From Terriglobia bacterium (GTDB lineage: Bacteria > Acidobacteriota > Terriglobia > UBA7540): a DNA stretch of 64,000 bases. The stretch covers positions 7,065-71,064 of the forward strand of contig DASYZE010000042.1 of NCBI GenBank assembly GCA_035946625.1, given 5' to 3'. Numbering within the stretch: the first letter of the stretch is position 1; every line of letters begins with the position of its first letter. The position numbers and the translations under genes are program-made. This document shows, one piece after another, positions 33,288-54,826 of the stretch. Below the pieces are notes generated by a model that worked only from the letters and a program-made list of their open reading frames with translations, was not told the DNA's origin and ran no database searches.

Positions 33288-34211
33288 TCAAACCGCCACA
33301 TTCTCCCGCATTGAAGAGAGCTCGGGGGCCGAGTCAGGCACCGCCACAAAGCGATAAGTCTGATAGGTTAGGGCCAAACTTGCCGCCAGAACCAACGCGC
33401 CCACGGCCACGTGCGTGGTGGTGACCAGAACCACCGGGGGCAAAGGCTGGGGTGCATTTTGATTGGTCCAGACTTCCCAGTACGAGCCAACGCCGAGGGC
33501 TACCTGCACCACCAGAAGGCCGGTGAGGAGCCAAATCGGCCGAGTCAAGCGGCGTTCGGTTCGAAATTCGGAGAGCACGCGCACCAACATCCAAAGCACC
33601 GCGATGGTCACCAAGCCCGCGCCCACCACGTGCGGGATGATTCCAAATCCATGATGCCGGAAAGCCGCACCCACCATCAACTGAAGAAATATCAATGCGG
33701 TGGTCGCGGTGGCCAGGCGCCGCAAAGAAATCGTTGAGGTTTCTTTTACCTTGGGCTCGTCCCAACGCCAGTCCGCCTGGGTAAATAATGCGAGGCTCAC
33801 CATAATGCAGAAAAATGCCTGGGCCAGGCAGGCATGAGCCACGGAAACGTCCACGGGCAAAAAGAAAAGAACGGTAATCCCGCCCAGAATGGCCTGAGCG
33901 ATGATGGTGAGAACGGAAATCGCGCCCAGGCGCCGTACCCAGCGTCGCGGCTCGCTGCGCCACAGCCAGACCGCGAGAATCAGAGTGAAGATCACGACGG
34001 TCCCCGCCACCATGCGGTGGCCGTGCTCAAATTTAACCCCCCCCACCATGCGCGGCATGCGAAAGGTCCCAAACGAAGTCGGCCAGTCCGGAACGGAAAG
34101 GCCGGCGTCGTTGGAGGTGACCAGCGCGCCGGCGATAATCAAAATGAAAGTGGCGGCGGCAACGAACGTCGCGTAGCGGTGCAGCCATCGTTGCTGTAAG
34201 GTCTGAGCCAT
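33288..34211 (-). CDS. ctaA: heme A synthase (COX15/CtaA family)
   Basis: Eight TM helices with His pairs (FEHGHRM, AFRHHGF, TTHVAVG) as in CtaA. Confidence 0.8.
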   Translation of the reverse strand: MAQTLQQRWLHRYATFVAAATFILIIAGALVTSNDAGLSVPDWPTSFGTFRMPRMVGGVKFEHGHRMVAGTVVIFTLILAVWLWRSEPRRWVRRLGAISVLTIIAQAILGGITVLFFLPVDVSVAHACLAQAFFCIMVSLALFTQADWRWDEPKVKETSTISLRRLATATTALIFLQLMVGAAFRHHGFGIIPHVVGAGLVTIAVLWMLVRVLSEFRTERRLTRPIWLLTGLLVVQVALGVGSYWEVWTNQNAPQPLPPVVLVTTTHVAVGALVLAASLALTYQTYRFVAVPDSAPELSSMRENVAV

Positions 34212-34219
34212 TTTCGAAA

Positions 34220-34507
34220 CTATGCTCTCCAAGGCGCGGCCGCCACGTTCGGCATTTCCTCATTGGCCGGATCCTGGTGAATCCCAGATCCTTCATCGGT
34301 CCTGGTGTTAAAGCTATTCCGGCGGCGGAACGCCACCCCGAATATCAAAATAAACATCAAAAGAGTGGGAAATATCATCACCAGAACACCGGTCTTCAAA
34401 GCCTGCAACATCCCCGGAGCCTGCGTGGCGGCGTTCTGATAACAAGCAGGACACATCTGCGCGAACGCCACGCTGGGGGTGGCAAGCGCGGCAAATCCCG
34501 CTGCCAT
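34220..34507 (-). CDS. small hypothetical protein with signal-like N-terminus, CxxC and one TM helix
   Basis: MAAGFAALATPSVAFAQMCPACYQN...GVLVMIFPTLLMFILIFGVAF. The ORF-track start at 34669 would translate the repeat region. Start uncertain. Confidence 0.4.
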   Translation of the reverse strand: MAAGFAALATPSVAFAQMCPACYQNAATQAPGMLQALKTGVLVMIFPTLLMFILIFGVAFRRRNSFNTRTDEGSGIHQDPANEEMPNVAAAPWRA

Positions 34508-34524
34508 TCGAGCCGGAATTTTCC

Positions 34525-34579
34525 AAATCTGAGATCGGAAATCTGAGATTTGAAATCTCATGATCGGTTTTTGAAATCC
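34525..34579. repeat. stuttering word repeat (tctgagat / ttgaaatc) with a local palindrome
   Basis: aaatctgagatcggaaatctgagatttgaaatctcatgatcggtttttgaaatcc, which contains the near-palindrome gagatttgaaatctc. Confidence 0.7.
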
Positions 34580-34691
34580 ACCCTTCACCACTTGATGTCT
34601 CTCTCGGTTCGCCTTGCCGTTTTTAATTTTCTCACGCCCCGTTCTCAACCTTCTTAATTCATCATTCATAATTCAACCTTCATACATTTCT

Positions 34692-35006
34692 TCAATGCAC
34701 CTTCATCACCAGAATGCGCAAACTGTCGGGAAATACCACAAACAACATGCCCACCACAAAGAGCAGCGCCGGCATCAAGGTCAAAATCAGGCTTCGGCGC
34801 TCGTACCGGAGGTGCATGAAGTAGGCGATGATCAATGATGCTTTGATGAGCGAGAGGCCCATCAACAGGGTCAGCATCAGCTTCAGCTCCAGTTGCGCAT
34901 AGGCCAGGAAGACCTCCACCCCGGTGAGTCCCAGCAGCGAAAACCAGACAGTGAATGTCACCTTCTTGCTGATTTCATTGTGGGCGTGTTCCATGGTTGC
35001 GTTCAT
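34692..35006 (-). CDS. ctaF: cytochrome c oxidase subunit IV (prokaryotic COX4 family)
   Basis: 104 aa with 3 TM helices and position after subunit III. TFTVWFSLLGLTGVEVFLAY resembles COX4_pro. Confidence 0.7.
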   Translation of the reverse strand: MNATMEHAHNEISKKVTFTVWFSLLGLTGVEVFLAYAQLELKLMLTLLMGLSLIKASLIIAYFMHLRYERRSLILTLMPALLFVVGMLFVVFPDSLRILVMKVH

Positions 35007-35124
35007 TCAGTCTCAAACCTCCGATTGCAGGCGCGGTCTCTGACCGCCGTCCCCGGCGCTCCGTAAGCGCCGAATTATTCGGCGGTCCCCGCCCCGTGAA
35101 GCAGGCACCGACCGCCGGGACAGA

Positions 35125-35769
35125 TCATCCTATTCTTGCCGACAGCAAATAGACCAGGGGGAAGATGAACATCCACACCAGGTCAACGAAGTGCCAATAC
35201 AGTCCGGCCACTTCCACTACTTCATCGTTGTACTTGCCCCGCGCCGTGCCGAATGCCACCACGGCCAGATAAACGACGCCGATGGTGACGTGAGTCATGT
35301 GCAGCCCAGTCAATCCGAAAAATGTGGCGCCGAATAGCGGTGTGCCCCACGGATTCCCCCAGGGTGTCACGCCCTGGTGAAACAGTCCAAACCACTCGCG
35401 CAGGTGGAGGACGTCAAACGTCACCCCCCCCATCAGGGTGGCCACCAGCCATCCGGCCGCGCGGGAGCGAATGCCCATCTTGGCGGCGCGCACGCCCAGC
35501 ACCATGGTGACGCTGCTGGTCAGCAGGACCAGGGTCATCACGGTGGCGTTGATGACGCTGGCTGATTCAAAAGGCCTCGGCCATGCTTCCGTCGACGTGC
35601 GCACATAACTATAGGCCACCAGGAGAGCTGAGAAGGTGATGGCATCGGAAACGATGAACAACCACATTCCCAGCTTATTCGAACCGATTGCGTACGGAGA
35701 CCCGCCCCCGGACCAGATCGATTCGTGGCCGCCCTCATGGGCGGCTAGATCTTGAGCATGGCTCGACAT
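35125..35769 (-). CDS. ctaE: cytochrome c oxidase subunit III
   Basis: Heme-copper oxidase subunit III-like helices (GLHMTHVTIGVVYL, YWHFVDLVWMFIFPLVYL). Confidence 0.85.
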   Translation of the reverse strand: MSSHAQDLAAHEGGHESIWSGGGSPYAIGSNKLGMWLFIVSDAITFSALLVAYSYVRTSTEAWPRPFESASVINATVMTLVLLTSSVTMVLGVRAAKMGIRSRAAGWLVATLMGGVTFDVLHLREWFGLFHQGVTPWGNPWGTPLFGATFFGLTGLHMTHVTIGVVYLAVVAFGTARGKYNDEVVEVAGLYWHFVDLVWMFIFPLVYLLSARIG

Positions 35770-35770
35770 C

Positions 35771-36442
35771 CTATAACCTCACCGTGAGCAAGAGTAGGAG
35801 ATAAATCCAAAGTCCGTCCATAAAATGCCAGTAAAGGGCAGTCACATCCACTGCCACACGCTTTTTCAGTCCGGCAGCCAATCGCGGAGCCTGCCCCACG
35901 AGGTAGCAAAGCGCGATGACGCCACCCAGCAGGTGGAGCCCGTGCGCCGCCGTCAGCAGGTAGAAGAACGAACTGCTGGGATTGGTGGAAAGATATACGC
36001 CATGCGACGCCAGCTCGCGCCACGCCACCAGTTGACCGCCAATGAACGCCACGCCGAGGATCGACGTGACCTTGAGCCAAATCTTGAATTGACTGGCTCG
36101 GCCGGCTCCCAGGGCCCGGCGCGATATTTCGAAGGCGACGCTGCTGGCCAGCAGGATTAGAGTATTGAAATAAAGAATGCGTGGTAGCGCAATCGCGGCC
36201 CAGTCGGACGACCCGCCCTTGCGGACGATCAGCGCGCTGGTGAACGACGCGAACAACATCACAATGGCAACCAGCGCCATCCACATGCCGGTGCGATAGG
36301 TTTGTGCCGGCACACTCCAATCCCGGTAATCTCTGCCGCCATACCCTCCGTACCCTCTTCGGCCGAAACCACTCCCGTTGCCACCGGTCGAATCGCTCCC
36401 GGGGGGGGTTGTGAGCCTTGGCGGAGTTAGTACGGTGGCCAT
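35771..36442 (-). CDS. second cytochrome c oxidase subunit III-family protein
   Basis: AAHGLHLLGGVIALCYL and LYWHFMDGLWIYLLLLL, with a Gly/Tyr/Arg-rich N-terminus. ATG 36442 preferred. Confidence 0.8.
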   Translation of the reverse strand: MATVLTPPRLTTPPGSDSTGGNGSGFGRRGYGGYGGRDYRDWSVPAQTYRTGMWMALVAIVMLFASFTSALIVRKGGSSDWAAIALPRILYFNTLILLASSVAFEISRRALGAGRASQFKIWLKVTSILGVAFIGGQLVAWRELASHGVYLSTNPSSSFFYLLTAAHGLHLLGGVIALCYLVGQAPRLAAGLKKRVAVDVTALYWHFMDGLWIYLLLLLTVRL

Positions 36443-36505
36443 TTCCAAACCCATCAGAAAGCGGACGAGGGAATCAGTAAACCCCTCCAAAAATTTATTT
36501 CAACC

Positions 36506-36533
36506 TTTCTGACTCCTGTCTTCTGACTCCTTC
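36506..36533. repeat. direct word repeat in the ctaD|ctaE spacer
   Basis: tttctgactcctgtcttctgactccttc. Its reverse complement contains ggagtcagaag, the same 11-mer repeated at 59446-59478. Confidence 0.75.
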
Positions 36534-36534
36534 T

Positions 36535-38316
36535 TTATTCCGCCGGCACTATTTCCGGCGAATCCTGCATGATGAAATCCTTCTCGGCGCCGGGTACGCC
36601 AAATTCATAAGCTCCGTGATAGACCACCGGATGTTTTCCGGCAAAATTGTCAAAGGGAGGCGGCGATGGAATTGTCCACTCCAGCGTCGTCGCCTCCCAC
36701 GGATTCTCGGAAGCCTTGCCACCTTTGAACATGCTCCAGAAAAGATTGACCACGAAAATCAGTTGCGCGCCCGCGGTGATGAAGGCCGCATAGGACATGA
36801 ACATGTGCAGGTCAATAATATGCGGCGTATTCAGGAAATCGACTTCCGTGAACTGGGAGTACCTTCGTATGTTGCCCGCCACGCCCAGGAAATGCATGGG
36901 CATGAAGATGCAATAGACACCCACAAAGGTAATCCAGAAATGAATTTTGCCCAGGGTTTCGTTCAGCATGCGGCCAAACATCTTGGGGAACCAGAAAAAC
37001 GTTCCGGCGAACATCCCGAAGATGGCGGCCACGCCCATCACCAGGTGGAAATGGCCGACCACGAAATAGGTGGCGTGCAAAGGAACGTCCACCGGGGGCT
37101 GGGCGAGGAACAATCCACTGAGTCCGCCGCTCACGAAAAGCGAAACGAACCCGATGGAAAACAGCATGGCGGAAGTCATTCGCAGTCTGCCACCCCATAG
37201 CGTTCCCAACCAGTTGAAAGTCTTGATCGCACTCGGCACGCCGATCGCCATGGTCATCATCGAAAAGGCAAAGCCGGAATAGGGGCTCATCCCACTCAGG
37301 AACATGTGGTGACCCCAAACCATAAAGCCGAGGAATCCGATGGCCATCATGGCGTAGACCATGGCCTTGTAACCGAAGATGGGCTTGCGCGAAAAGGTTG
37401 AGATGATGTGCGAGGTCATTCCCATCCCAGGCAGGATGGCGATGTAGACCTCCGGATGGCCGAAAAACCAGAACAAGTGTTGCCAGAGGAGTGGCGACCC
37501 GCCGCTGTGTGGAATGATTTGATCGCTGACCACAAGGCCGGCGGGGATAAAGAAACTGGTGCCGCCCAACCGGTCAAGGAGCAACAAGACGCCGGCGGCC
37601 AGAAGAACGGCGAAAGAAAGAAGCATCAGGACGGCGGTGATCAGCCACGCCCATGCGGTGAGAGGGAGACGGCTCAAGGTCAATCCGCGAGCGCGAAGAT
37701 CCAGGGTGGTGGCGATGAAATTCAGGCTGCCCAAAAGCGAGCCGAGGCAAAAAATAGCAATTGAAACAATCCAGAGGGTCTGGCCCATGCCCTCTCCGGG
37801 CCCGGCGGCGGTGCCGATGGCGCTTAAAGGCGGATACGCCGTCCACCCCGACAAAGGCGGGCCATCGGTGATAAAGAAAGTGCTGAGGAGAACCACAAAG
37901 CCTACAAAAGTCGTCCAGAACGAAAGCATGTTCAGTGTGGGGAAGGCCATATCCTCCGCGCCAAGCTGAATGGGCAATATATAGTTTCCAAACCCGCTTT
38001 GGGGCGCCGTGGTGAGCACAAAGAAAACCATCAGAGTTCCATGCATGGTCATGAGAGAAAGATAATATTCCGGGGTCATCACGCCGCCAGGGGCGCCGTT
38101 AGGAGAGAGCTTTTCGAGCAGCGGCATGTGGGCGCCAGGCCACACCATGTGCCAGCGCATCAAAACGGACAGGATGATGCCCACAAAAACTGACGCCAAC
38201 GCCAGGAAGTAATACTGTTTCCCGATCACCTTGTGATCGAGACTGAAGATGTACTTCCGGATAAAACCGGTGGGCGCCGTGTGATGGTGAACGGCCTCCG
38301 CGTGCGCATCTGCCAT
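36535..38316 (-). CDS. ctaD: cytochrome c oxidase subunit I (A-type heme-copper oxidase)
   Basis: 593 aa with 12+ TM helices. WFFGHPEVYI, the HH pair (VWGHHMF), and VVGHFHLVM His ligands. Confidence 0.95.
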   Translation of the reverse strand: MADAHAEAVHHHTAPTGFIRKYIFSLDHKVIGKQYYFLALASVFVGIILSVLMRWHMVWPGAHMPLLEKLSPNGAPGGVMTPEYYLSLMTMHGTLMVFFVLTTAPQSGFGNYILPIQLGAEDMAFPTLNMLSFWTTFVGFVVLLSTFFITDGPPLSGWTAYPPLSAIGTAAGPGEGMGQTLWIVSIAIFCLGSLLGSLNFIATTLDLRARGLTLSRLPLTAWAWLITAVLMLLSFAVLLAAGVLLLLDRLGGTSFFIPAGLVVSDQIIPHSGGSPLLWQHLFWFFGHPEVYIAILPGMGMTSHIISTFSRKPIFGYKAMVYAMMAIGFLGFMVWGHHMFLSGMSPYSGFAFSMMTMAIGVPSAIKTFNWLGTLWGGRLRMTSAMLFSIGFVSLFVSGGLSGLFLAQPPVDVPLHATYFVVGHFHLVMGVAAIFGMFAGTFFWFPKMFGRMLNETLGKIHFWITFVGVYCIFMPMHFLGVAGNIRRYSQFTEVDFLNTPHIIDLHMFMSYAAFITAGAQLIFVVNLFWSMFKGGKASENPWEATTLEWTIPSPPPFDNFAGKHPVVYHGAYEFGVPGAEKDFIMQDSPEIVPAE

Positions 38317-38331
38317 CTGTTATCTCCCTTT

Positions 38332-38448
38332 CGATATTTGCCGATTGCTCACAGAAGATTTAAGGCTCGGTACGCCAGGTCAGTCAGGTTATTTCAAATA
38401 ATTCACAGCCCGATCAGCTTGGATCTTAAAATCGCCAATCGCAAATCG
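38332..38448. repeat. inverted repeat bracketing the ctaC|ctaD spacer
   Basis: cgatatttgccgattgc (38332-38348) versus aaatcgccaatcgcaaatcg (38428-38448). The arms lie 16 nt from the ctaD start and 8 nt from the ctaC stop. Confidence 0.7.
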
Positions 38449-38455
38449 TTAATTC

Positions 38456-39292
38456 TCACTGCGACGCCGCCTGGTCTTGCAGCCACTTCTCATAATCTGC
38501 TTCGGTCATGACCTTCAAAAATGCCCGCATCTTGTAATGTCCTAGCCCGCAAAGCTGCGTGCAGACGATTTCGTAAGTTCCGTTGGGCAATTTTGGGCTG
38601 CTGCTGTGATTGAGGGCGTCCGGGGTGGTGGTGAAATGGATGGGAATCTCGAGTCCCGGAACCAGGTCCTGGTGCACCCTCAGCTCGCGAACATAGAACG
38701 AATGGCCCACGTCCTTGGAGCGCAGGATCAGCTCGATTTCCCTGTTCACGGGAATGCCCAGCGTGGCGGTCACAATGTCGTCCTTGGCAACGGCGTCGTG
38801 ATCCCGGTCGAGACCAAAGAAATTTCCCGTCGCGTCGTTGATCAGGTTGACGTGGGTGGGACCAAATTGTCCGTCGGGGCCGGGATAGCGAAAGGACCAG
38901 GCGAATTGTTGTCCCTGCGCCTGAATCCTCAGCGCGCCCGGCGCCGCGCCGGTGAAATGCATCGCCGCCCAGATGCGGTAGCCCATCAAATTCAGGCCAA
39001 TAAACAAAATCGCCGCTGCTGTGGTCCACATCGATTCGAGCTTGTTGTTCCCGTGCGAGTAGATGACCTTGCGGCCGTCGCCCCGATCGCGGTACTTGTA
39101 AACGAACCAGGCCAGGCCGAGTTGAGCGAGGACGAAAATGATGCCGCAAAGGGTGAGCGTCAATATGAACTGCTGGTCCACCGCAGCACCGTGGGTTGAA
39201 ATGGAGGGAGGAAACCACCAGATGTGCGCCGCGAATATATATACCGTTACGACCGTGATCAGCGCCACTACCAGCGCGAAGGCCAGCGCCAT
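38456..39292 (-). CDS. ctaC: cytochrome c oxidase subunit II (CuA, no fused cytochrome c domain)
   Basis: Two N-terminal TM helices and a CuA site (H...CTQLCGLGHYKM). The protein ends about 25 aa after the CuA motif and has no CxxCH. Confidence 0.9.
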   Translation of the reverse strand: MALAFALVVALITVVTVYIFAAHIWWFPPSISTHGAAVDQQFILTLTLCGIIFVLAQLGLAWFVYKYRDRGDGRKVIYSHGNNKLESMWTTAAAILFIGLNLMGYRIWAAMHFTGAAPGALRIQAQGQQFAWSFRYPGPDGQFGPTHVNLINDATGNFFGLDRDHDAVAKDDIVTATLGIPVNREIELILRSKDVGHSFYVRELRVHQDLVPGLEIPIHFTTTPDALNHSSSPKLPNGTYEIVCTQLCGLGHYKMRAFLKVMTEADYEKWLQDQAASQ

Positions 39293-39306
39293 AAGTTCTC
39301 CTCTTC

Positions 39307-39471
39307 AAAAGTAGACAGTAAACAGTAGTCTGTAGACAGGGTTACGGAATTGTTTTTATAGCTCAAGACTCAGGGCTGATTTCCAAGCACACTCCACGGC
39401 GCGAATCTCATCGATCCGGTCTTGTTTGTTGCTCTTCCCAGTCTACTGTATACGGTCTTCTGTCTACTTTT
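39307..39471. repeat. inverted word-repeats bracketing the cupredoxin|ctaC spacer
   Basis: aaaagtagacagtaaacagtagtctgtagacag (39307-39339) versus cagtctactgtatacggtcttctgtctactttt (39439-39471). The terminal 12 nt are perfectly complementary. Confidence 0.8.
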
Positions 39472-39475
39472 CTAT

Positions 39476-40258
39476 TCAGCCCTTGAAACTAAAGTCCACC
39501 GTCTTTGATTCCTTGGGTGCCACGGTTACTTTTTGTTCTTGCGTCCCAAAAGTGGCTGACCATGCCCCGAGGGTATAGTCGCCCGGAGGAAGCCCTTTAA
39601 TCGTGAACGTGCCATCGCTCCCTGAAACTGCGAAGAGAGGATTCTTGGTCACTCCGATGTAAGCCCTCATCCAGGGGTGTTGGTTGCACTTTACCGGGAT
39701 CATGATTTCCGAGCGGGCAAACGTCTTATCCAGCGCCGGTGCGCCGGGGGCCTGGGACTCATTCCACTCGCGATTGTCCTTGGGCTGCGGGTGGATATTG
39801 TGCGTGGTGGCATCACTGCTGACGATGTGCAGCGTCTGGTCCACTTGCACCCCCACCACGTGGGGTTGGTACATGCAGCCATTCTGGTCCAGGGTCACGG
39901 CCTCGGTAGGCGTGGGCCAGGCGTATTTGTCCGCCCCATCTTTCACATAAACGAAAACGTTGGGCAGCGTTCCATTTTCATTTACTTCGCCGTCTTCCAC
40001 GTGGACAGGGGACTTGTGCTTGGCCACGCACACCGGGTCCTGATCCATATGAATCACGGCCAGCTTGGGCTTGGCGCCGGTAAAAGTAATTTTACCCGTC
40101 ACCGTACCCACCGTGGCTTGATCGACAGGCGTACCTGCAGGCGCGGTGGCGGTCGCCGCCGGCTGCTCGGTGGTTTCCGGCGCCTTCTCGCTGCTACAGC
40201 CAAACATTAAAATCGTTGTGGCGATAATCGAGAACCCTATCATCAATTTCTTGTTCAT
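39476..40258 (-). CDS. lipoprotein with an amicyanin-like type-1 copper (cupredoxin) domain fused to a CarboxypepD_reg-like beta-sandwich
   Basis: Lipobox LMFGC. THNIH-(34 aa)-CNQHPWM parallels amicyanin PHNVH-(35 aa)-CTPHPFM (His/Cys/His/Met ligands). The C-terminus GTFTIKGLPPGDYTL is CarboxypepD_reg-like. Confidence 0.7.
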   Translation of the reverse strand: MNKKLMIGFSIIATTILMFGCSSEKAPETTEQPAATATAPAGTPVDQATVGTVTGKITFTGAKPKLAVIHMDQDPVCVAKHKSPVHVEDGEVNENGTLPNVFVYVKDGADKYAWPTPTEAVTLDQNGCMYQPHVVGVQVDQTLHIVSSDATTHNIHPQPKDNREWNESQAPGAPALDKTFARSEIMIPVKCNQHPWMRAYIGVTKNPLFAVSGSDGTFTIKGLPPGDYTLGAWSATFGTQEQKVTVAPKESKTVDFSFKG

Positions 40259-40309
40259 GTTTTAAAACCTTCCTATCAAATTAGATTTGTCCGAATCATT
40301 ATCGCGCCA

Positions 40310-43300
40310 TTAATGAGCTTTTACCAGCATTCCGATCAGCGTTGGCCGGGCATGGGCATTCGGTCCTTCCTGTTTCTCGGTCGTCTGCTTCATGCTGTTC
40401 GCACTGAGTCCGGTGAGTTTGCGTTGTTCTTCCGGCGTAATCTCAAACATATAACGAACCAGCAGGTCGGCCTGATCGCCCGTATATCCGTTGAAGATGG
40501 GGGGCGTGGGGCCGGCAAAAACATTGTGCCCATCCTGGGTCTTAAAGAGACCGGAGGGCATGGCGGTGCCCGGGCTGATCATGGCCGGGTCGAGAATCCA
40601 ATGCTTGGTCCAATCCGGCTTCAACCGCTCCGGCGCCAGCAGGAAATTGGGCGCGGTGGCAAATTTATCGTGGGTCGCATCGCCCGTGGCGTGGCACTTC
40701 AGGCACGGAGCCGCCCGGCTGGTGAACAGCGCTCGCGCCATTTCCAATTCCTTGGGAGTCAATGGATCGAGCCGGGGCGAAATGTATGGCATAGGTTGGC
40801 TGGACATGGCTTGGAAGAATCTCACCAGTTTGCGCACTTCGATGGGTGAGAAGTAGAAAGTCGGCATCCTGACTTTCAGGTACGGACGCACGCCGTCGCG
40901 ATCCGTGTCCGTGTCGCTCATGGCGGGATTGGAAAGGAACTTCGCCAGCCATTCCGGATTTACCCGCGCCCCTTCGGTGAGCAATTTGGGCGGAAGCTGA
41001 TCCTTCCATTCCGGCGTTTGATAGCGCGGGATATCCATCAGCACCGAATCCTGGCCCACTTTGAATTGGTGGCAGCCCTCGCAATTGTATTTCTTGACCA
41101 GCCACCATCCGTCTTGAACGTCCCGGCGCTGATCGGCGGGCAGATACCAATAGCGTTGGGGAATTTCCGAAGTCACGCTGCCCATCAGGAAAGTGGTGAG
41201 TTCGGAAATCTGCTTTTGGTCGGCGGGCGCCAGGTCGGGCATGCCTTCCGTCACTTTGGAGCTGACGGGCTCGAAGAAGTCGGGCATTTTCAGTTCTTCT
41301 GCTTCCGTCTTAATCATGCCCTTGTCATACATTTCCGGCTTGGCCAGCTTGTGTTCGAAAAAGCCCTTGTGGCTGTACCAATCTTCGTTCTTGGCTTCGC
41401 GAATGTAGAGGGCAAAGTCAATCTGCTCCAGAGGCTTGCTGCCTTCAGCGGTAAGCTCCGTCCCGATTCTCCCTTCGTCTTCCATACCCTCAATTTCGTG
41501 GCAGCCCGCGCAACCATAAAACCGGATTTTCTTTTTGCCCTCTTCCTTCAACTTCGGATTGTTCATGAAGGGCGCCGCGGCGTAGGTCGCATCCGGGCGC
41601 TTGAGAGTCTCGAGGTAACTGGCGATGTCCCGCGCTTCATCCCAGGAGAGTCGCAGGTTGGGCATCACCGTCATCTGCTCCACCACCATCTCGTGGCCGT
41701 CGTTCGGACACTTGGTGTGGTTTAAGTCAAACGTGTAAGGCGGCAGGCCGTGCTTCTTGTAATCTTCATCCGTAATATCTCTTTTCTCAAAGGGGCAATA
41801 AGGGCGGGTGCGCTCGCGCGGGTTATGAATCCAGCGCACCAGGAAATCGTAATTGTCCTTTTCACCCACCCGGGTCAAGTTGGCGGCGAACCAGCCGCCC
41901 ACCTGGTTGGCGCCTTCGCCCACCGAGTGGCAGCCCATGCAGCCGCGCGTCTCAAAGCTTTCCTTGCCCTTCACCGGATCGCCCGGCGCCTGGTGAGACA
42001 GGGTGGTCTGAATCGCCGTCTGCCAAAGGTAAGCGGAAATATCCTCAATGTCGTCATCGTCCAAGCGGAATCGGGGCATCTTGGTGGTGGGCCGCCAGGC
42101 GTGAGGATTCTTCAGCCACACCGGAATCCATTCCGGCCGAATCTTTACCCGGACTTCCTTCAAGTCCGGGCCGACTTTCTTGCGGCCCATCATCAGGTAC
42201 TTGGCTTTCACTTCGAGCTGGTCCAACTGCATGGAAACCTTGCTGGAGGCGACCCGCAGCGCGTCCGCATCGGTGTAATCCTGGCGCGCGGTCGCGTTGT
42301 CGGCAGCGTGGTCGCCCGCGTCGATATCCCGCTGCGCGTTGCGCAGATCATCGGCGCGTTCCGTTTCCATCTGCAAAATTTGCTGCTGATTGGCGACGAG
42401 ATCTTCGGGCTCCGAATCGTATCCCTGGAAGCGATGGCAGCCGATGCAGCCTTTCCACTGGAGAAGCCGCTTGCCCTCGGTCAACTCCGGCGCGTGGTCC
42501 ACGACCATGTCGGACGCGTGGCACTGCTGGCAGCCGGCCTGCATGTTGGCTTTGTGGTAGAGCGGCCAAAGCCAGTGCTCGTATTCTCCGTGGCCCATCG
42601 CCACGCTATCCACTTGCATCCCGTTGCCGTTATGGCACGGCGTGCAGCCATATTTATCCGGATCGTGAATTTGAAGCAACTCCATGTCCGGATGGCTGGT
42701 GAACGCCGCGGACATGGGATCCTTATCGCCGCCCATATTCTGGCGGGTCAGCAGCACCGGCTCGCGAATCCCCAGGTGGCACGATTCGCAACGGTCCACA
42801 ACTCCGGCGTCCGGGATGTTGATCTGCTTAATCTCGATGGCCATCGTCTCGGCCTTATTCAGCAATCCCCGCAACTGCTCGGCGCTGAGGCCATTCAAAT
42901 GGTCGTGGAGATAGGCCCTAAGTTTTTTCGCCGCCTCGCCCTGAGGCTTCAGGATGTCACCTTCCTGCTGCTGCAGTTTCCCTTTTTCGGTCTGTAGGTT
43001 GGCGAACTCGTTTTCCAGCTCCTCGAAGGTGAACGTTTTCCCGGCGAAGGAAGGCCCGTTGAGCGTGAATGGGCCCTTCTTGTACATATCCAGATTGTGT
43101 TCCAGCGACGTTCTGCCCGGCCCGTCGGGGGTATGCTCGGCCACATAGATCATGGACCCGACCCGGGCCCGCTCGTTGGTCAATGTCCCGAGAACCGCGG
43201 CAATTTTGCCGTCAATGGCGGCGGTCTGCTCGTGGATTTGCGTCAGTTGTGGCGCAGCCGCGTCATGCGCGTCCTTCACTTGTTTTTCCAGCGCCTGGTA

Positions 43301-43534
43301 GTCGGGAGAATTCTCGATGGCCTTTTCAGCTTTTTCCTGCCGGGGAATCTCTTTTTTCAGGAGGGACGCGTAAAGCGTGGCAAATCGACGCTCGTAACCC
43401 TTCCACGGCCTCAGGCCGAAGAACTCGTCGTAGAGCGACCAGCTCAAACTGAAGATCAGGAGGAACGCCGCGATCACAAAATAGCCGGCCAGCGAACGGC
43501 CAACAATAGGGTCTTTCTCGGGGGCGTCAGGCAA
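40310..43534 (-). CDS. membrane-anchored octaheme c-type cytochrome (1074 aa)
   Basis: N-terminal TM helix plus a coiled region. Eight CxxCH: CESCH, CTPCH, CQQCH, CIGCH, CMGCH, CAGCH, CEGCH, CLKCH. Several class-I-like modules end in MPxF/L...YL. Confidence 0.85.
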   Translation of the reverse strand: MPDAPEKDPIVGRSLAGYFVIAAFLLIFSLSWSLYDEFFGLRPWKGYERRFATLYASLLKKEIPRQEKAEKAIENSPDYQALEKQVKDAHDAAAPQLTQIHEQTAAIDGKIAAVLGTLTNERARVGSMIYVAEHTPDGPGRTSLEHNLDMYKKGPFTLNGPSFAGKTFTFEELENEFANLQTEKGKLQQQEGDILKPQGEAAKKLRAYLHDHLNGLSAEQLRGLLNKAETMAIEIKQINIPDAGVVDRCESCHLGIREPVLLTRQNMGGDKDPMSAAFTSHPDMELLQIHDPDKYGCTPCHNGNGMQVDSVAMGHGEYEHWLWPLYHKANMQAGCQQCHASDMVVDHAPELTEGKRLLQWKGCIGCHRFQGYDSEPEDLVANQQQILQMETERADDLRNAQRDIDAGDHAADNATARQDYTDADALRVASSKVSMQLDQLEVKAKYLMMGRKKVGPDLKEVRVKIRPEWIPVWLKNPHAWRPTTKMPRFRLDDDDIEDISAYLWQTAIQTTLSHQAPGDPVKGKESFETRGCMGCHSVGEGANQVGGWFAANLTRVGEKDNYDFLVRWIHNPRERTRPYCPFEKRDITDEDYKKHGLPPYTFDLNHTKCPNDGHEMVVEQMTVMPNLRLSWDEARDIASYLETLKRPDATYAAAPFMNNPKLKEEGKKKIRFYGCAGCHEIEGMEDEGRIGTELTAEGSKPLEQIDFALYIREAKNEDWYSHKGFFEHKLAKPEMYDKGMIKTEAEELKMPDFFEPVSSKVTEGMPDLAPADQKQISELTTFLMGSVTSEIPQRYWYLPADQRRDVQDGWWLVKKYNCEGCHQFKVGQDSVLMDIPRYQTPEWKDQLPPKLLTEGARVNPEWLAKFLSNPAMSDTDTDRDGVRPYLKVRMPTFYFSPIEVRKLVRFFQAMSSQPMPYISPRLDPLTPKELEMARALFTSRAAPCLKCHATGDATHDKFATAPNFLLAPERLKPDWTKHWILDPAMISPGTAMPSGLFKTQDGHNVFAGPTPPIFNGYTGDQADLLVRYMFEITPEEQRKLTGLSANSMKQTTEKQEGPNAHARPTLIGMLVKAH

Positions 43535-43567
43535 AGCACTGCTCCTCAGGCGGATAAATTTCGGATG

Positions 43568-44509
43568 CTAAACGTTAAACCACCACGTGACCCAGACGTA
43601 CTTGATGCGAAACACCAGCCGCAAAATCATCTTGACGGGCAACAACAGCATGGTGATCAAGAAAAACTGCAAGGTGAGGTACTGGATCAAGCTCATCCTC
43701 TGGTAAATCTTTCGGCTGAATTCCGTCAGGGTAATGACCCGGTGAAATAAGTAGCCGGCGGCGCCAAAATACAGGCCCATCACGATGGCGCCAAACACCG
43801 CCTTGCCCGCCATGGTGGTGATGCCAAAGATGTCGGGCAAATCGCGATTGACTTCATACACCACCCGGCTCGGATCCCAAGTCTGTCCCGGCCAGAACCA
43901 CATCCACCCCGGGCCTCGAATAAACGTCCCCACCAGAACCATCAGGACCCAGAGAAAAAGGAAGCCAAAACAGAAGGTGGCGATGGAAAACCGGCGCTGC
44001 TTCCAAGTGTAGTACCCCGAGCCCAATGGATTGGTATCCACATACGGGATAATCATCAGCCCGAGAACGATCAAGGTGGGCATCACCACGCCCGCGATCC
44101 AGGGATCGAAATAAACCAGCATCTCCTGAAGTCCCAGGAAATACCACGGCGCCTTGGCGGGGTTCATGGTCAGGTTGGGATTCGCCAGTTCTTCCAGGGG
44201 AGCGTTGAGCGTAATCGACCAGACAAACAAAATAATGGTGACTATTATGGCCGCCAGAAATTCCACCCGCATCAGGTACGGCCAGGTCTGGAGTTCCTTG
44301 GCCCAGCCCGACTTCCACGGATAATTTTTCCGGTGGGCGGTTTTGGCCAGTTGGGGATCGCTCTCGAGCTGCGCAATCAGGCGGTCATTGGCAAAAGCCT
44401 GGCGGAAAGCCATCCAGCAGAAAAATGGGATTAGGAAAATGAGCGCGACAATCGGAATATTATCCGGCGCCGAGCTGATTTCCCAAAGTTGGTGCCAGTC
44501 AAAACCCAT
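43568..44509 (-). CDS. cytochrome b C-terminal half (b6f subunit IV-like), extended
   Basis: PAKAPWYFLGLQEML corresponds to the PEWY/Qo motif of the cytochrome b C-terminal domain or subunit IV. Extra TM helices at both ends. Confidence 0.8.
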   Translation of the reverse strand: MGFDWHQLWEISSAPDNIPIVALIFLIPFFCWMAFRQAFANDRLIAQLESDPQLAKTAHRKNYPWKSGWAKELQTWPYLMRVEFLAAIIVTIILFVWSITLNAPLEELANPNLTMNPAKAPWYFLGLQEMLVYFDPWIAGVVMPTLIVLGLMIIPYVDTNPLGSGYYTWKQRRFSIATFCFGFLFLWVLMVLVGTFIRGPGWMWFWPGQTWDPSRVVYEVNRDLPDIFGITTMAGKAVFGAIVMGLYFGAAGYLFHRVITLTEFSRKIYQRMSLIQYLTLQFFLITMLLLPVKMILRLVFRIKYVWVTWWFNV

Positions 44510-44530
44510 ACCATGACCTCAAGTCTCGAA

Positions 44531-44643
44531 AGTAGGTGGTAGGTGGAATGTGGTATGTAGGGATTCCAAACCCATGTGGTCCACAGAACCCAAGTACAAC
44601 CTTCCGCGGCCTTCCCTGCCTACCACCTGCCACCTACCCCTAC
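44531..44643. repeat. inverted word-repeats bracketing the cyt b|subunit IV spacer
   Basis: agtaggtggtaggtggaatgtggtatgtaggg (44531-44562) versus ccctgcctaccacctgccacctacccctac (44614-44643). Shares aggtggtaggt and ggaatgtgg with 25654-25680. Confidence 0.8.
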
Positions 44644-45547
44644 AATTTCCTCTCCGGCTTGATCTCCGACTCCAGCATCACGGGCGCCGGGCCGGAAATT
44701 CCACCGTCTTTTCGCACCCGCCAGAAATGCACGCCCATAAAAGTTCCGGCAATCAGCGGGATGGCAATGCAGTGCCAAATGTAAGCGCGCAGCAGCGCAT
44801 TGGCATCCACAATCGACCCGCCCAGGAGGGCAAAGCGGACGTCATTATAAGGAGTCATCCCCAACTGCCGCCCCAGCGGTCCCTGGTAGCCCAAGCCGGG
44901 CGTATTCTGCGCCATGGTGGTTCCCACCGTCACCGCCCAGAATCCCAGTTGGTCGTCGGGCAGAAGATAGCCGGTGAAGGAGAGCAGCAGGGTCAGCACC
45001 AACAGGACCACGCCCACGCACCAATTGAATTCGCGCGGCTTCTTGTAAGAGCCGGTGAGGAAGACGCGGAACATGTGCAGCCACACGGCGATGACCATCA
45101 GGTGGGCAGCCCAGCGGTGCATGTTGCGCAAAAGCTTTCCGAACGGGACGTCGGCCATCAGGTAAATGATGTCGTTGTAAGCCTGCCCCTTGGTGGGGTG
45201 GTAGTAGAACATCAGCAGGACGCCAGTGATGGTGAGAACGATGAAAAGATAAAATGTGATGCCGCCCATGCCCCAAGTGTAGTTGTAACGGACTGCGTCC
45301 CGATTCACCTTGGCGGGGTGGAGATGCAGGAAGACGTTGGAGAGGACTCCTAGGGCCCGGCTGCGCTCGCTCTCGTCGTGCTTGACGCGAAAAATTGATT
45401 TATAAAGTTGGGTCTTTTCGGGCTTCTTGAGCGCTTCTGCTTCTTCGATGACCCTCTCCTTCAAGGCCTTCGTGTCACTGAGAAGCTTCTCCACAAAACC
45501 GGGCGACTCTTTCTTTTCGGGAACCTCGGGGCTTGGACGATCAGCCA
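44640..45547 (-). CDS. cytochrome b N-terminal half (b6-like, four-helix di-heme core)
   Basis: His pairs in RNMHRWAAHLMVIAVWLHMF and AYIWHCIAIPL...GVHFWRV. The heme ci Cys position reads WGMGG (no Cys). ATG 45547 preferred. Confidence 0.9.
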
Positions 45548-45563
45548 TGAATCTCCTCAAGAC

Positions 45564-45736
45564 TAATGACGAGAGATGAGTGACGAGCATGGACCGGAAG
45601 CTTTTGGTGTTCGCCGATCAATGCGTTACCTTCACACGTTTGCTTCTCGAAATTACTGACTTAAAAAGCCTGGCTCTGTTGGGTAAAGGTGTTTTCTTAT
45701 TTCCTGCCCGTCACTTGTCACTCTTCACTGGTCACT
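45564..45736. repeat. inverted word-repeats bracketing the Rieske|cyt b spacer
   Basis: aatgacgagagatgagtgacgag (45564-45586) versus cgtcacttgtcactcttcactggtcactg (45708-45736). Confidence 0.75.
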
Positions 45737-45743
45737 GCTTTTC

Positions 45744-46442
45744 CTACACCGGGATGAACGCACCCGGATCGTTGAATTCGTCCCGGCCGCCTTTGCTGCG
45801 ATCCCACATAAAAAGTATGCTTTTGTCCGCGATGATCTGGCCCTGGGCGTTCAACTCAACGTGCGCGCGGTCCATGGGCCGAGGGGCCGGCCCTTCAAAA
45901 TTGATTCCTTCCGGGGTATAGCCGCTGCCGTGGCAGGGGCACTTGAATTTGTTTTCAGCCGGCTTCCAGTCCGGCGTGCAGCCGAGGTGCGTGCACTTGG
46001 CGAAAATGGCAAAAATCTGAGTGGGTTCCCTCACCACGTAAATGCGGCACTCTTGCTTGAACCGGTCGCTGACTCCGAGCACGTAATCGGACGGGTAGCC
46101 AAGATTGCAAATGTTGCTGGGCTCAAAGAGGGCGCGCGGGAAAAAGAACCGGAGGAACATCAGGAAATTCGCGGCCAGGAATGCCGCCATGCACGCCCAG
46201 GTCAGGCGACGGCGCAATTGATTGGGGTCAGGCTCTGTGGTTTCCTTCGCCGGGGCGGCTGCGGGCGCCGCAGGTTTGGGTGCCGGGGGAGTGGTGGCTT
46301 TCGCTGCCGCTGCTGGAGGAGCCGCCGGCTTGGCGGTTGCAGGTGCGGCGGATTTTTCCACCGGCTTCGCCGCCCCAGTCCCCGCTGCTGCAGCGGGGAG
46401 TTTTGAAGGAACTGGGGCGCTCGGATCTTCAGGATTCGACAT
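45744..46442 (-). CDS. Rieske [2Fe-2S] protein of the bc-type complex
   Basis: CTHLGCTPDW...CPCHGSGY cluster boxes. RRR-containing leader plus TM helix, preceded by an Ala/Pro/Lys-rich extension of about 75 aa. Confidence 0.9.
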   Translation of the reverse strand: MSNPEDPSAPVPSKLPAAAAGTGAAKPVEKSAAPATAKPAAPPAAAAKATTPPAPKPAAPAAAPAKETTEPDPNQLRRRLTWACMAAFLAANFLMFLRFFFPRALFEPSNICNLGYPSDYVLGVSDRFKQECRIYVVREPTQIFAIFAKCTHLGCTPDWKPAENKFKCPCHGSGYTPEGINFEGPAPRPMDRAHVELNAQGQIIADKSILFMWDRSKGGRDEFNDPGAFIPV

Positions 46443-46513
46443 TACTCTTTACCCTTCGTTTTTATTATATGCCCGCAGAGAAAATCTTCGACGCAAAACT
46501 TAAGAAATGGAAA

Positions 46514-46541
46514 TCTATATGATGGCCGCTGAGTCTGTCAA
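46514..46541 (-). promoter_or_regulatory. candidate sigma70-type promoter for the respiratory string
   Basis: On the minus strand: TTGACA (46541-46536), a 16 nt spacer, TATAGA (46519-46514). A perfect TATAAT also lies at 46469-46464. Pattern match only. Confidence 0.25.
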
Positions 46542-46817
46542 GACGATTTGATGACCACCATGCGATATTCTTTGCGGTCGAGCGAAAAAAGGTTGCAGTT
46601 GGACAAAAATTTCTTTGCTTGTCGTAGGGCCGGGGCTTGCCCCGGCCCATGTCCGGTGTGAGTGAATGAAGCTAGGGAAATCCTTGGCCCTACACACGCC
46701 AACACACCCAGTCCCCTCTGCGAAATTAAGGCTTCGCAAGACCAGTTGGTTTTGATATCCCTCCGCCCTGGCCGGCGAATACCTTGGTGAGTGTGGCTGC
46801 CAAACCCTCGACGGCGC

Positions 46818-47174
46818 CTATTTTGCCGACCGATGCAGAATGACGCGCACTTTTTCCAGAGTAATCATGCCCCCTCCCAGCATTTCGTCGAGCTTGGGAA
46901 GAATTTTCTCAATGCGCTCGGAATATTCGACCACCTCGACCACGATGGGCAAATCCTGAGAGAGGCGCAAAATGGCCGTGGTGTGGAACGGGTGCTGGCC
47001 CAGGCTGGAAGAACCGTACCCACCCACCCCGCGCAGGACGGTCACCCCATAAAAACTCTCGGCGCGGAAAAGATCCACCAAAGCCTTGTACAGGGGTTTG
47101 CCTTCCCAATTGTCGGCTTCGCCAAAATGAATCCGCATCAAGGTGCGTTCGCCTTCGAATCTTTGGTGCTCCAT
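46818..47174 (-). CDS. DUF190 (PII-like) protein, CrcB-associated
   Basis: LMRIHFGEADNWEGKPLYKALVDLFR...GVTVLRGVGGYG is the DUF190 core. Immediately downstream of crcB. Confidence 0.75.
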   Translation of the reverse strand: MEHQRFEGERTLMRIHFGEADNWEGKPLYKALVDLFRAESFYGVTVLRGVGGYGSSSLGQHPFHTTAILRLSQDLPIVVEVVEYSERIEKILPKLDEMLGGGMITLEKVRVILHRSAK

Positions 47175-47183
47175 CGTCTCCTC

Positions 47184-47555
47184 CTACATCCGGTCCGCCA
47201 AAACCATTCCGATGCGAAGCAACAGAAGTCCGCCGACCATGCTCGTGCAAACGTAGATGCCGGCCTTCATCCACTCGCCGTCTTGTAACAGATGCACGGT
47301 CTCCCAGCCAAAGCTTGAGAAAGTTGTAAAAGCGCCAAAAAAACCGATGGTGAGCCCAATGCGCCACTCGGGGGGAAAAGAAATATGATTGAGCGCGTAT
47401 TGTCCCACGCCCCCCAGAAGGAAACATCCCAAAAGGTTCACCACCAAAGTGCCGCTGGGAAATCCAGGGCCGGTGCGAGACTGCACCAAACCCTGAAGTC
47501 CGTAGCGGGCCAGTGTTCCGGCAATTCCAAAAACAATCAACAGAGTAATTTGCAA
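47184..47555 (-). CDS. crcB: fluoride ion channel CrcB/FluC
   Basis: 123 aa with 4 TM helices. GIAGTLARY and GAFTTFSSF motifs. TTG start with a GGAAGG SD. Confidence 0.9.
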   Translation of the reverse strand: MQITLLIVFGIAGTLARYGLQGLVQSRTGPGFPSGTLVVNLLGCFLLGGVGQYALNHISFPPEWRIGLTIGFFGAFTTFSSFGWETVHLLQDGEWMKAGIYVCTSMVGGLLLLRIGMVLADRM

Positions 47556-47590: not shown

Positions 47591-47625
47591 AAAAAAACTC
47601 CTGGGCGCTCACCAGTGGCCAGGAG
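47591..47625 (-). terminator. intrinsic terminator forming the expression platform of the fluoride riboswitch
   Basis: Minus strand CUCCUGGCCACUGGUGAGCGCCCAGGAG followed by U7. The 5' arm reuses the aptamer 3' pseudoknot strand. Confidence 0.75.
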
Positions 47626-47672
47626 TTATCAGTCCCGCCAGGCGGGACGGTTTTGGCGAACTCCATCGCCTT
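47617..47672 (-). promoter_or_regulatory. fluoride riboswitch aptamer (crcB motif)
   Basis: Minus strand reads AGGCGAUGGAGUUCGCCAAAACCGUCCCGCCUGGCGGGACUGAUAACUCCUGGCC. It matches the GGCGAUGGxGUUCGCC ... CUxAUxAxxCCU consensus, including the GGAG/CUCC pseudoknot. Confidence 0.85.
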
Positions 47673-47782
47673 CAAATTTTAATCTTACCACAGACACTGC
47701 CCAAGCATCGGGCCGCACCACGGCCCATGTCTTGCGCAATTGAATTCCCACCGCATGCTGCACTAAGATGGGTGAGCACAAC

Positions 47783-51987: not shown

Positions 51988-52064
51988 GGTACGCCCGGAG
52001 AGATTCGAACTCCCGACCCCTTGCTTCGTAGGCAAGTGCTCTATCCAGCTGAGCTACGGGCGCA
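51988..52064 (-). tRNA. tRNA-Arg (anticodon ACG), CCA encoded
   Basis: The reverse complement gcgcccgtagctcagctggatagagcacttgcctacgaagcaaggggtcgggagttcgaatctctccgggcgtacca folds as a 77-nt cloverleaf. Anticodon loop is CUACGAA. Confidence 0.95.
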
Positions 52065-52200: not shown

Positions 52201-52219
52201 CGGACGTTCAGCCGGTCGG

Positions 52220-52314
52220 GGAGCGCGGGCGTCCCGCCCGCTTTTCCAAAGTTCGGAGTTGAAGGCTATGATTTACGGCGAAGAAAGTAAGAGCGGGCGG
52301 GATGCCCGCGCTCC
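52220..52314. repeat. inverted pair of GC-rich hairpin units upstream of citrate synthase
   Basis: ggagcgcgggcgtcccgcccgctt (52220-52243) versus gagcgggcgggatgcccgcgctcc (52291-52314). Near-perfect reverse complements 47 nt apart; each unit is also self-complementary. Confidence 0.8.
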
Positions 52315-52418
52315 CAGGGAAACGCGAAGGCTTCTTGTTTTGCGATGTGGGCATCGTGTATGATGTGCCTTCAAAAAATTCCGGCTGAGCTCACATGGGG
52401 GAGCGGGGGAGCGCGCGG

Positions 52419-54148: not shown

Positions 54149-54259
54149 AATCTCTCCTTGGTGCTCAGAGTCCTTCGCCGGTCCACTGTCTCCCGTAAAA
54201 ATATCGGCTGTCAACCAATTATGATATATTCGCCAGGCGATATTCGGAGTCAGACATCG

Positions 54260-54709: not shown

Positions 54710-54712
54710 AGC

Positions 54713-54810: not shown

Positions 54811-54826
54811 GGAAGAGGCTGAGATC

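Follow-up and report, generated by a model that had tools for sequence, protein, structure and literature searches.

We analyzed a 64,000-nucleotide (nt) stretch of DNA from a Terriglobia bacterium of the phylum Acidobacteriota (GenBank assembly GCA_035946625.1, contig DASYZE010000042.1, positions 7,065 to 71,064; hereafter the window), focusing on four long spacers between co-oriented genes of a respiratory cluster. On balance, we think it probable that the intergenic hairpins in these spacers derive from repeats and belong to a class found throughout the phylum; they would be generic filler rather than a purpose-built device for setting subunit stoichiometry. The element consists of two arrays of a tandem word of 7 nt (sometimes 8 nt), inverted relative to each other, the G-rich array first, with a variable interior between them. 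These arrays act like simple-sequence repeats: the number of units shifts between near relatives, different word families replace one another at a single site, and a site can be empty. At the junction between the Rieske and cytochrome b (cyt b) genes, the arms stayed complementary in five genomes while the interior diverged.

Inverted word arrays bracket spacers of a respiratory gene cluster

Pfam matches confirm the gene order and minus-strand orientation given for the respiratory genes in an earlier note on this DNA, which was made from the sequence alone (Table 1). They do not bear out its cupredoxin label for the gene at 39476-40258, whose matches are CarboxypepD_reg-like domains, with no cupredoxin among them. 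This gene, referred to here as cpd, is kept between the multihaem cytochrome c gene (mhc) and ctaC in many acidobacterial loci. The ctaD of the window is at most 72-74% identical to that of metagenome-assembled genomes of Terriglobia, Pyrinomonadaceae and Bryobacterales. A promoter scan identified a promoter-like site upstream of the Rieske gene (TTGACA-18-TAGATT) and, in the same scan, no promoter-like or terminator-like site was seen within the four long spacers. A single transcript, and with it co-transcription of the cluster, is therefore plausible.

The earlier note put the spacers at about 130-195 nt, a range that holds for the four lengths of 195, 130, 183 and 139 nt, although the first of these depends on cyt b starting at the ATG at 45548. 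That codon is preceded by a GAGGAG Shine-Dalgarno (SD) sequence. The longest cyt b open reading frame (ORF) begins at ATG 45590, within the 3' arm of the repeat, and would swallow that arm; because homologues retrieved by protein search measure 301-303 amino acids (aa), we place the start at 45548 (302 aa). Repeat arms can thus mislead start calls by false extension, as at cyt b, and can inflate the lengths reported for "operon spacers," a warning for annotation.

The four junctions had been described as bracketed by imperfect inverted repeats (IRs). We ranked the IRs lying within 300 nt in a repeat scan of the whole 64 kb, compared each whole-spacer fold with 200 dinucleotide shuffles, and measured end-to-end pairing as a duplex between the first 45 nt and the last 45 nt of the spacer, in sense and antisense, expressed as z against 200 shuffles. 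The IRs at cpd/ctaC, cyt b/subunit IV (subIV) and Rieske/cyt b beat the shuffles, with 0-3 of 200 shuffles as good in the duplex comparison on at least one strand, but that at ctaC/ctaD pairs no better than chance. The fold comparison divides the junctions in the same way, with z from -1.7 to -2.5 at three spacers and z = +1.6 at ctaC/ctaD.

The cpd/ctaC spacer contains the longest IR of the window (39307-39341 and 39437-39471; 35 nt, 80% complementary). Its word is GTAGACA, and its outer 12 nt (AAAAGTAGACAG and CTGTCTACTTTT) are fully complementary, as had been claimed; the fold reaches z = -2.5 (2 of 200 shuffles as good) and the duplex z = -3.1 in sense and -4.8 in antisense. The third longest IR lies at cyt b/subIV (44538-44563 and 44613-44638; 26 nt, 85% complementary), where the 5' arm at 44613-44638 reads GGTAGGT GGCAGGT GGTAGGC and the TAG stop codon forms part of the first word (fold z = -1.9, 9 of 200 shuffles as good; duplex z = -0.85 sense and -4.3 antisense). 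At Rieske/cyt b, the 5' arm (about 45702-45737; AGTGACC AGTGAAG AGTGACA AGTGACG) faces a 3' arm (about 45558-45594; CGTCACT CATCTCT CGTCATT) that leaves the SD and the ATG at 45548 just 3' of the helix. With the corrected start, the bracket helix appears in the fold (z = -1.7; 10 of 200 shuffles as good), and duplex z values are -2.5 in sense and -4.3 in antisense. The ctaC/ctaD spacer has an array at 38428-38448 (GATTTGC GATTGGC GATTTTA) and a weak two-unit partner at 38332-38348; with 194 of 200 shuffles folding as well and duplex z values of +0.7 in sense and -0.1 in antisense, it is a decayed or marginal pair.

The "stuttering words" that the earlier note saw in the arms are called by Tandem Repeats Finder (TRF) as period 7 (38429-38448, 44532-44555, 44619-44643 and 45710-45737) or period 14 (39310-39339 and 39441-39467). 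Its observation that arms lie next to stop and start codons also stands: 5' arms begin 0-10 nt past the stop, and 3' arms stop 14-25 nt short of the start, immediately 5' of an SD that stays unpaired. A long-range stem that loops out the spacer and sets the stop beside a free SD and start is predicted at three junctions, though not at ctaC/ctaD. The predicted helices at these three contain 20-35 imperfect pairs, closing loops of 50-120 nt, and with arms of 26-36 nt they would attain the length of double-stranded RNA typical of RNase III stems (about 20 bp or more). Rfam returned no match to the spacers, whether for the whole window at gathering thresholds or for 34000-47500 at E <= 5. Intrinsic terminators, which are short G+C-rich hairpins with a small loop and a U-run, were considered and rejected, given the loop sizes and the lack of a terminator-like match in the four spacers.

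Table 1. Genes of the respiratory cluster and intergenic elements of the window, with the evidence for each
Feature	Position	Strand	Evidence
Rieske	45744-46442	-	Pfam
Rieske/cyt b spacer, 195 nt	45549-45743	-	Fold, duplex, TRF, orthologues
Cytochrome b (cyt b)	44640-45548	-	Pfam; 302 aa with start ATG 45548
cyt b/subIV spacer, 130 nt	44510-44639	-	IR rank, fold, TRF on both arms
Subunit IV-like protein (subIV)	43568-44509	-	Pfam
Multihaem cytochrome c (mhc), 1074 aa	40310-43534	-	Pfam
CarboxypepD_reg-like protein (cpd), 260 aa	39476-40258	-	Pfam
cpd/ctaC spacer, 183 nt	39293-39475	-	IR rank, fold, duplex, TRF
ctaC	38456-39292	-	Pfam
ctaC/ctaD spacer, 139 nt	38317-38455	-	TRF array; fold and duplex not significant
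ctaD	36535-38316	-	Pfam
ctaE (followed by a second COX3-like gene and COX4)	35771-36490	-	Pfam
BirA (25781-26776)/type III pantothenate kinase CoaX (24819-25640) element	25641-25780	-	IR scan, sequence, Pfam
CoaX/ORF 23952-24662 element	24678-24818	-	IR scan, TRF, sequence
rfaE-like (cytidylyltransferase-like, 15624-16109)/heptosyltransferase (16262-17314) element	16098-16270	+	IR scan, duplex, sequence, Pfam
YqeY-like (54143-54709)/OPT transporter (54827-56950) element	54710-54826	+	IR scan, TRF period 7, sequence, Pfam
Unpaired heptamer array GATTGGT, 5.6 copies	58913-58951	+	TRF, sequence, Rfam, Pfam

The same architecture occurs at unrelated junctions of the window

The feature had been presented as a property of the respiratory operon, a view that fails because four unrelated junctions of the window share its architecture (Table 1). 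The arms between BirA and CoaX (25770-25789 and 25654-25673) use the word GGTAGGT, as does the cyt b/subIV element. The spacer that follows CoaX combines an outer pair (GGAGGGAAG and CTTCCCTCC), an inner pair that forms a perfect 14-nt IR (24711-24724 and 24788-24801), and arrays of an 8-nt word at 24689-24739. At the rfaE-like/heptosyltransferase junction, the arms (16098-16122 and 16246-16270) run across the stop codon and extend as far as the start codon, and none of 200 shuffles forms as good a duplex (z = -5.7). The YqeY/OPT arms lie at 54716-54737 (GATGAAG GCTGAAT GCTGAA) and 54784-54805, with the SD GGAAGAGG after the 3' arm. The array at 58913-58951, whose word belongs to the ctaC/ctaD family, stands directly past the stop of a rhomboid gene and upstream of a cobalamin riboswitch, which shows that arrays of this kind can be solitary and can also lie where transcription units end. 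In all, the window has at least eight such elements at unrelated junctions and at least six words (GTAGACA, GGTAGGT, AGTGACN, GATTKGY, GCTGAAT and a CATTGAG-like word), most of which lack G3 tracts.

The cobalamin riboswitch (59046-59264, plus strand) precedes the gene for a TonB-dependent receptor (59324-61753), the N-terminal region of which carries a period-7/21 tandem repeat of GAAGTCA (59419-59478, 8.6 copies). This repeat is in frame as 21-nt units and is therefore a heptamer array recruited into coding sequence. Between a minus-strand tRNA gene (51990-52063) and the plus-strand gene that comes next, there is a G+C-rich IR of a non-heptamer type (52219-52315; 27 nt, 93% complementary; GGGAGCGCGGGCGTCCCGCCCGC...).

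Paired heptamer arrays are widespread in acidobacterial intergenic DNA

Our comparative sample comprised 80 loci around ctaD from species-representative genomes and 80 loci around cyt b from metagenomes, all centered on one gene cluster (loci and relatives are designated by L numbers). Orthologous junctions of the cluster range from overlapping genes to spacers of about 400 nt across these 160 related loci. Among 286 junctions of 60-480 nt, the end-to-end duplex has z < -2 in 51 and z < -3 in 33. Junction elements with a significant duplex mostly show visible tandem words; examples, inverted and abutting the stop and the SD, include (CCGTGAA)n, (GTCGTTR)n, (GATTTTRG)n, (CTAGTGC)n, (TAGGGAA)n and (CTGAGTS)n. 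One genome often reuses the same word at several junctions, and the period is 7 in 17 of the 20 duplex-significant elements with a clear repeat period. Among the non-acidobacterial loci (L061-L080), 0 of roughly 12 long junctions tested reached z < -2.5.

A TRF survey of 2.02 Mb of acidobacterial DNA yielded 419 arrays of period 5-11, 260 intergenic and 159 coding. Period 7 accounts for 170 of the intergenic arrays versus 16 of the coding arrays, which are dominated by periods 6 and 9; put differently, 170 of 186 period-7 arrays are intergenic, though 82% of the DNA is coding. Half of the intergenic arrays (130 of 260) have an inverted partner within 350 nt, against 14 of 260 with a direct partner. 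Of the 89 unique pairs, 68 have a first arm with G > C and 17 one with G < C. Because an inverted repeat reads alike on both strands, this G-first order is a polarity of the element and not of the transcript, and we rejected a G-rich 5' arm on the sense strand as evidence of RNA function for the same reason. We also rejected a placement of stop codons in the first arm as the cause of the polarity, since its asymmetry (33 versus 19) is weaker than that for G > C.

The elements are not confined to co-oriented genes. A word-type element separates the divergent genes pdxS and GntR-aminotransferase (L012), and another separates the convergent genes for DUF420 and an NHL-repeat protein, its arms abutting both stops (L051); our crude gene caller misassigns some contexts (e.g., L148), and convergent and divergent examples are accordingly limited to these Pfam-verified cases. 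By approximate gene calls, IRs occur in 10-20% of long spacers in every orientation class.

[quoted passage not shown]

Elements turn over rapidly among close relatives while one keeps its pairing

None of the 160 loci contained a nucleotide homologue of the window spacers, so that covariation on these spacers called for closer relatives. Exact-protein look-ups returned no match for cyt b (with either start) or subunit IV, and near-identical strains only for ctaC. A protein search identified relatives whose cyt b is 89-94% identical, and their contigs were retrieved.

The earlier note had made persistence of the arms in close relatives a test of its proposal, and the outcome differs by junction: pairing held in five genomes at Rieske/cyt b, but at cyt b/subIV the arms are replaced or missing in some relatives. 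There, three unrelated word families, or else an empty site, occur among genomes whose cyt b is 91-94% identical. The arms are of GGTAGGT type in the window, L169 and L170, of GTTGAYA type in L166 and L168, and of ATCAGCN type in L165, and the same operon has an empty 27-nt spacer in L163 and L164. L165 and L166 have nearly identical Rieske/cyt b spacers and unrelated cyt b/subIV elements. At ctaC/ctaD, L163 carries a clean inverted pair of (TCAGAAN)n where the window has its GATTKGC array.

The Rieske/cyt b element is orthologous in the window, L165, L166, L168 and L170, and RNAalifold recovers an 18-bp bracket helix in all five. At two positions of this helix, three genomes have G-C, the window has A-U and one genome has G-U; this corresponds to a word change from AGTGGC/GCCACT to AGTGAC/GTCACT that affects several units of both arms. 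Mean identity is 75% in the 5' arm, 59% in the 3' arm and 43% in the interior. Elsewhere, a strain variant of the window organism (L162; 3 single-nucleotide polymorphisms [SNPs] in 2051 nt) has a SNP in the cpd/ctaC stem, at 39459, that turns an A.A mismatch into a U-A pair.

Unit number is labile. L166 has one extra 3' unit (+7 nt) relative to L165 at Rieske/cyt b, L102 has about 13 units versus 5 in L103, and L081 and L084 also differ. Other orthologous pairs show large differences in unit number, with some arm changes uncompensated. Because the words pair in several registers and unit numbers differ, point-by-point compensation is ambiguous in L089/L098, L006/L007, L102/L103 and L081/L084.

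In L170, a long near-perfect palindrome (about 1620-1820; GCAGGGTGATGAAAAAC...GTTTTTCATCACCCTG) lies downstream of cyt b and the GGTAGGT-type element, and an opposite-strand gene takes the place of subunit IV there, an arrangement that suggests a rearrangement at the element. The Rieske/cyt b spacer of L169 is filled by a sequence very similar to a GTAG/CTAC-tagged, REP-like hairpin that in the window lies upstream of Rieske (46624-46693; GTAGGGCCGGGGCTTGCCC and GGGAAATCCTTGGCCCTAC), in place of the heptamer element.

Strand comparisons fit RNA and DNA pairing equally

Duplexes with z < -2 are as common in antisense (49) as in sense (51) among the 286 junctions. The sense duplex is the more stable in 30 of 41 elements (30 versus 11); the same bias appears in element-free control spacers (128 of 178; 128 versus 50), and we therefore rejected sense-over-antisense stability as evidence for RNA. 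G.U pairs make up 102 of 1058 pairs in sense versus 63 of 962 in antisense, an excess subject to the same control-spacer caveat and to transcription-linked deamination. The duplex comparisons thus yielded no strand-specific signal separating an RNA structure from a DNA palindrome, and lacking an element-specific sense signal, the pairing fits an RNA helix and a DNA hairpin or cruciform equally.

Relation to described repeats

Heptamers are the most over-represented long simple repeats of bacterial non-coding DNA, and to our knowledge the only detailed study of inverted heptamer pairs is that in Xanthomonas, where no function was assigned. The earlier note did not recognize its feature as a described element class; convergent inverted pairs of intergenic heptamers near upstream ORF ends had in fact already been reported in that genus (PMC4692102), and they are the closest described precedent. 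In Xanthomonas, about 70-75 cases of the intergenic GGGAATC heptamers per genome are convergent inverted pairs (Rehm et al. 2015, PMC4692102); the heptamers have a mean distance of 28 nt to the closest upstream ORF, are mostly transcribed, differ in length between species and have no function found (PMC4692102). Intergenic heptamer simple-sequence repeats are known in Nostoc as well as Xanthomonas (PMC4692102), and polymerase slippage has been put forward as the cause of the excess of heptamers seen among long repeats in bacteria (Mrazek 2007, as summarized in PMC4679880 and PMC4692102).

The acidobacterial elements share with those of Xanthomonas tandem 7-nt units with a strong non-coding bias, a position near the upstream ORF end and mostly between co-oriented ORFs, and a unit number that varies among close relatives even though arrays stay paired or single. 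Many are likewise paired convergently, with the G-rich strand first if the plus and minus repeats of that paper both denote the G-rich motif. Unlike Xanthomonas, which has one word with a G3 tract and G-quadruplex character, this other phylum has many words, often several per genome, most of them unable to form three-tetrad quadruplexes. In addition, the acidobacterial pair brackets the whole gap from stop to SD, and unrelated words replace each other at one site in close relatives.

Direct repeats of the heptamer TAACTGA occur in Beggiatoaceae, Cyanobacteria and Bacteroidetes (PMC4679880), and cyanobacterial STRR heptamers are cited in PMC4692102. Both resemble the present arrays as intergenic tandem heptamers. 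TAACTGA arrays abut or overlap ORF ends because forward copies put stops in all frames; unlike the pairs described here, they are single direct arrays of one word, mostly just upstream of starts, with one inverted pair in 170 sets.

REP dimers, or REPINs, are repetitive extragenic palindromes in inverted pairs, mobilized by RAYT transposases (PMC3733652). Our elements resemble them in being extragenic and in forming inverted pairs that are separated by 20-100 bp, lie in transcribed gaps and can fold up as a single long hairpin; roles in mRNA stability have been proposed in both cases, and two words of the window contain GTAG. REPs, however, have palindromic units with a sequence conserved across the family and a tag, GTAG or CGTC, whereas the arms here are direct tandem heptamers whose words vary by site. 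REP/REPIN membership was therefore rejected: the arms are not palindromic units, and GTAG occurs in two of the words only.

Small palindromic insertions that are transcribed together with genes are known from Neisseria (Correia elements) and enterobacteria (ERIC/IRU elements). They form multi-copy families with conserved full-length sequence and target duplications, and they create structures sensitive to double-strand RNases or RNase E. The elements of the window are similar as hairpin-forming inserts of 100-150 nt in transcribed intergenic gaps, but have unique interiors and no visible duplications. REPINs and Correia/ERIC elements are functional analogues that fail as relatives. The intercistronic RNase III hairpins of phage T7 early mRNA and the stems of rRNA operons are long imperfect helices between cistrons of one transcript. 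The helices predicted here would resemble them if processed, although we saw no conserved internal-loop architecture and our elements also occur outside operons.

These observations extend the record to a soil phylum that has been little studied and in which pairing is the rule, with many words and a strong G-first polarity. The system is tractable for comparing hairpins as replication by-products with hairpins as selected RNA structures; its appeal is that among close relatives a single site can gain, lose or exchange elements, while one element kept its pairing through five genomes.

Origin and possible function

We propose that the arrays expand by replication slippage and that the inverted partner may arise or be maintained through copying of one arm onto the other, or through selection for pairing. 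The position of the arms a few nt from the stop and start would follow from an element that occupies all the room in a junction that was tight at first, as in the 27-nt empty site. Persisting elements would be harmless configurations, with the SD free and no G-rich arm resembling a start or an SD beside the start codon. As the G-rich arm is transcribed first, the C-rich arm could pair on emerging, and a closed helix would then cover the long untranslated gap, instead of C-rich RNA exposed to Rho or RNases. A gap folded in this way would act as a generic structural filler or insulator on the respiratory mRNA and as a possible substrate for a double-strand RNase. An RNA-level role in insulation, processing or coupling is plausible.

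Several points weigh against generic filler. The generating mechanism is inferred, and the account of G-first polarity by avoidance of Rho and RNases is pure inference. Positive selection for an RNA function could instead explain why the arms are better conserved than the interior and why some hairpin recurs at the same junctions in many lineages. The loci were all chosen around one gene cluster, crude gene calls make the context counts approximate, and the source genome is represented by 64 kb, so that word copy numbers apply at the level of the window.

The proposal of the earlier note, that these are selected RNA structures on a polycistronic mRNA in which the helix loops out the spacer for translational coupling, or provides an RNase III-type processing or stability site that sets stoichiometry, is the main rival reading; it is possible, and in our judgment unlikely. 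It would explain the helices of 20-35 imperfect pairs predicted for three junctions, each with a free SD just 3' of it, 5' arms that start within the ribosome footprint of the stop codon, coordinated changes that keep the pairing in five relatives as the interior diverges, the strain SNP in L162 that mends a mismatch, and the recurrence of some hairpin at respiratory junctions in many lineages. It sits poorly with the same elements lying between unrelated, convergent and divergent genes, with the empty site of a close relative that has the same operon, with junctions of 0-60 nt in many species, and with near relatives that carry unrelated words at the same junction; nor is there an element-specific advantage of the sense strand, and the ctaC/ctaD pairing is non-significant. 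We give lower credence, and call it doubtful, to a stronger form in which Acidobacteriota possess self-renewing hairpins, their arrays made in situ beside stop codons, their arms actively kept complementary, and the whole selected as universal gap insulators or processing sites that might, for example, block Rho loading, guide cleavage by a double-strand RNase, or hand terminating ribosomes to the next SD. Were this so, operon stoichiometry would depend on the elements after all, and their sequence would be free to change.

Small mobile elements of MITE, REPIN or Correia/ERIC type, which target the gap after stops and whose arms are terminal inverted repeats recognized by a transposase, would account for presence/absence polymorphism at one site, for different elements sharing that site, and for recurrence of words within a genome (GGTAGGT twice and GATTKGY twice in the window; also L039, L007 and L148). 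The occurrence of GGACAGGCTTCAGCCTGTCC at different junctions in L025, L143, L150 and L155 and cross-junction matches of 77-86% over 79-115 nt in related loci point the same way. Yet neither the window nor 2.2 Mb from relatives has a second copy of the window interiors, and what is shared within a genome is the arms rather than whole elements. Full-length homology of the MITE kind was rejected on a blastn comparison of 13 window spacers with the window plus 2.2 Mb, which gave one 23-nt arm match and four chance-level matches of 16-19 nt. By inspection, no target-site duplication is visible at element ends or in the comparison of empty and filled cyt b/subIV sites; arms differ between elements, unit numbers vary as in slippage, and no transposase turned up, though no search was aimed at transposases. 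We judge this origin improbable. Still less credible is a compositional artefact in which low-complexity spacers happen to pair, which we consider very remote. It gains from ctaC/ctaD pairing no better than shuffles and from whole-spacer fold z values of merely -1.7 to -2.5, and is contradicted by two of the three longest IRs in 64 kb falling within respiratory spacers, by end-to-end duplexes that, at three junctions, outscore every one or almost every one of 200 shuffles, by z < -3 in 33 of 286 related junctions, and by 130 inverted against 14 direct partners. The IR-rank, duplex and partner-count tests together rule it out for three of the four junctions.

Other features of the cluster and its surroundings

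The short ctaD/ctaE spacer (36491-36534, minus strand) contains a 13-14-nt tandem duplication (GGAGTCAGAAGAC and AGGAGTCAGAAAG), which yields two SD-like GGAG motifs ahead of a TTG start. Two genes, crcB (47184-47555) and a DUF190 gene (46818-47174), are preceded by a fluoride riboswitch (47613-47679, minus strand). The crcB-DUF190 pair stands directly upstream of the respiratory cluster, and the relative L163 has the same neighbors.

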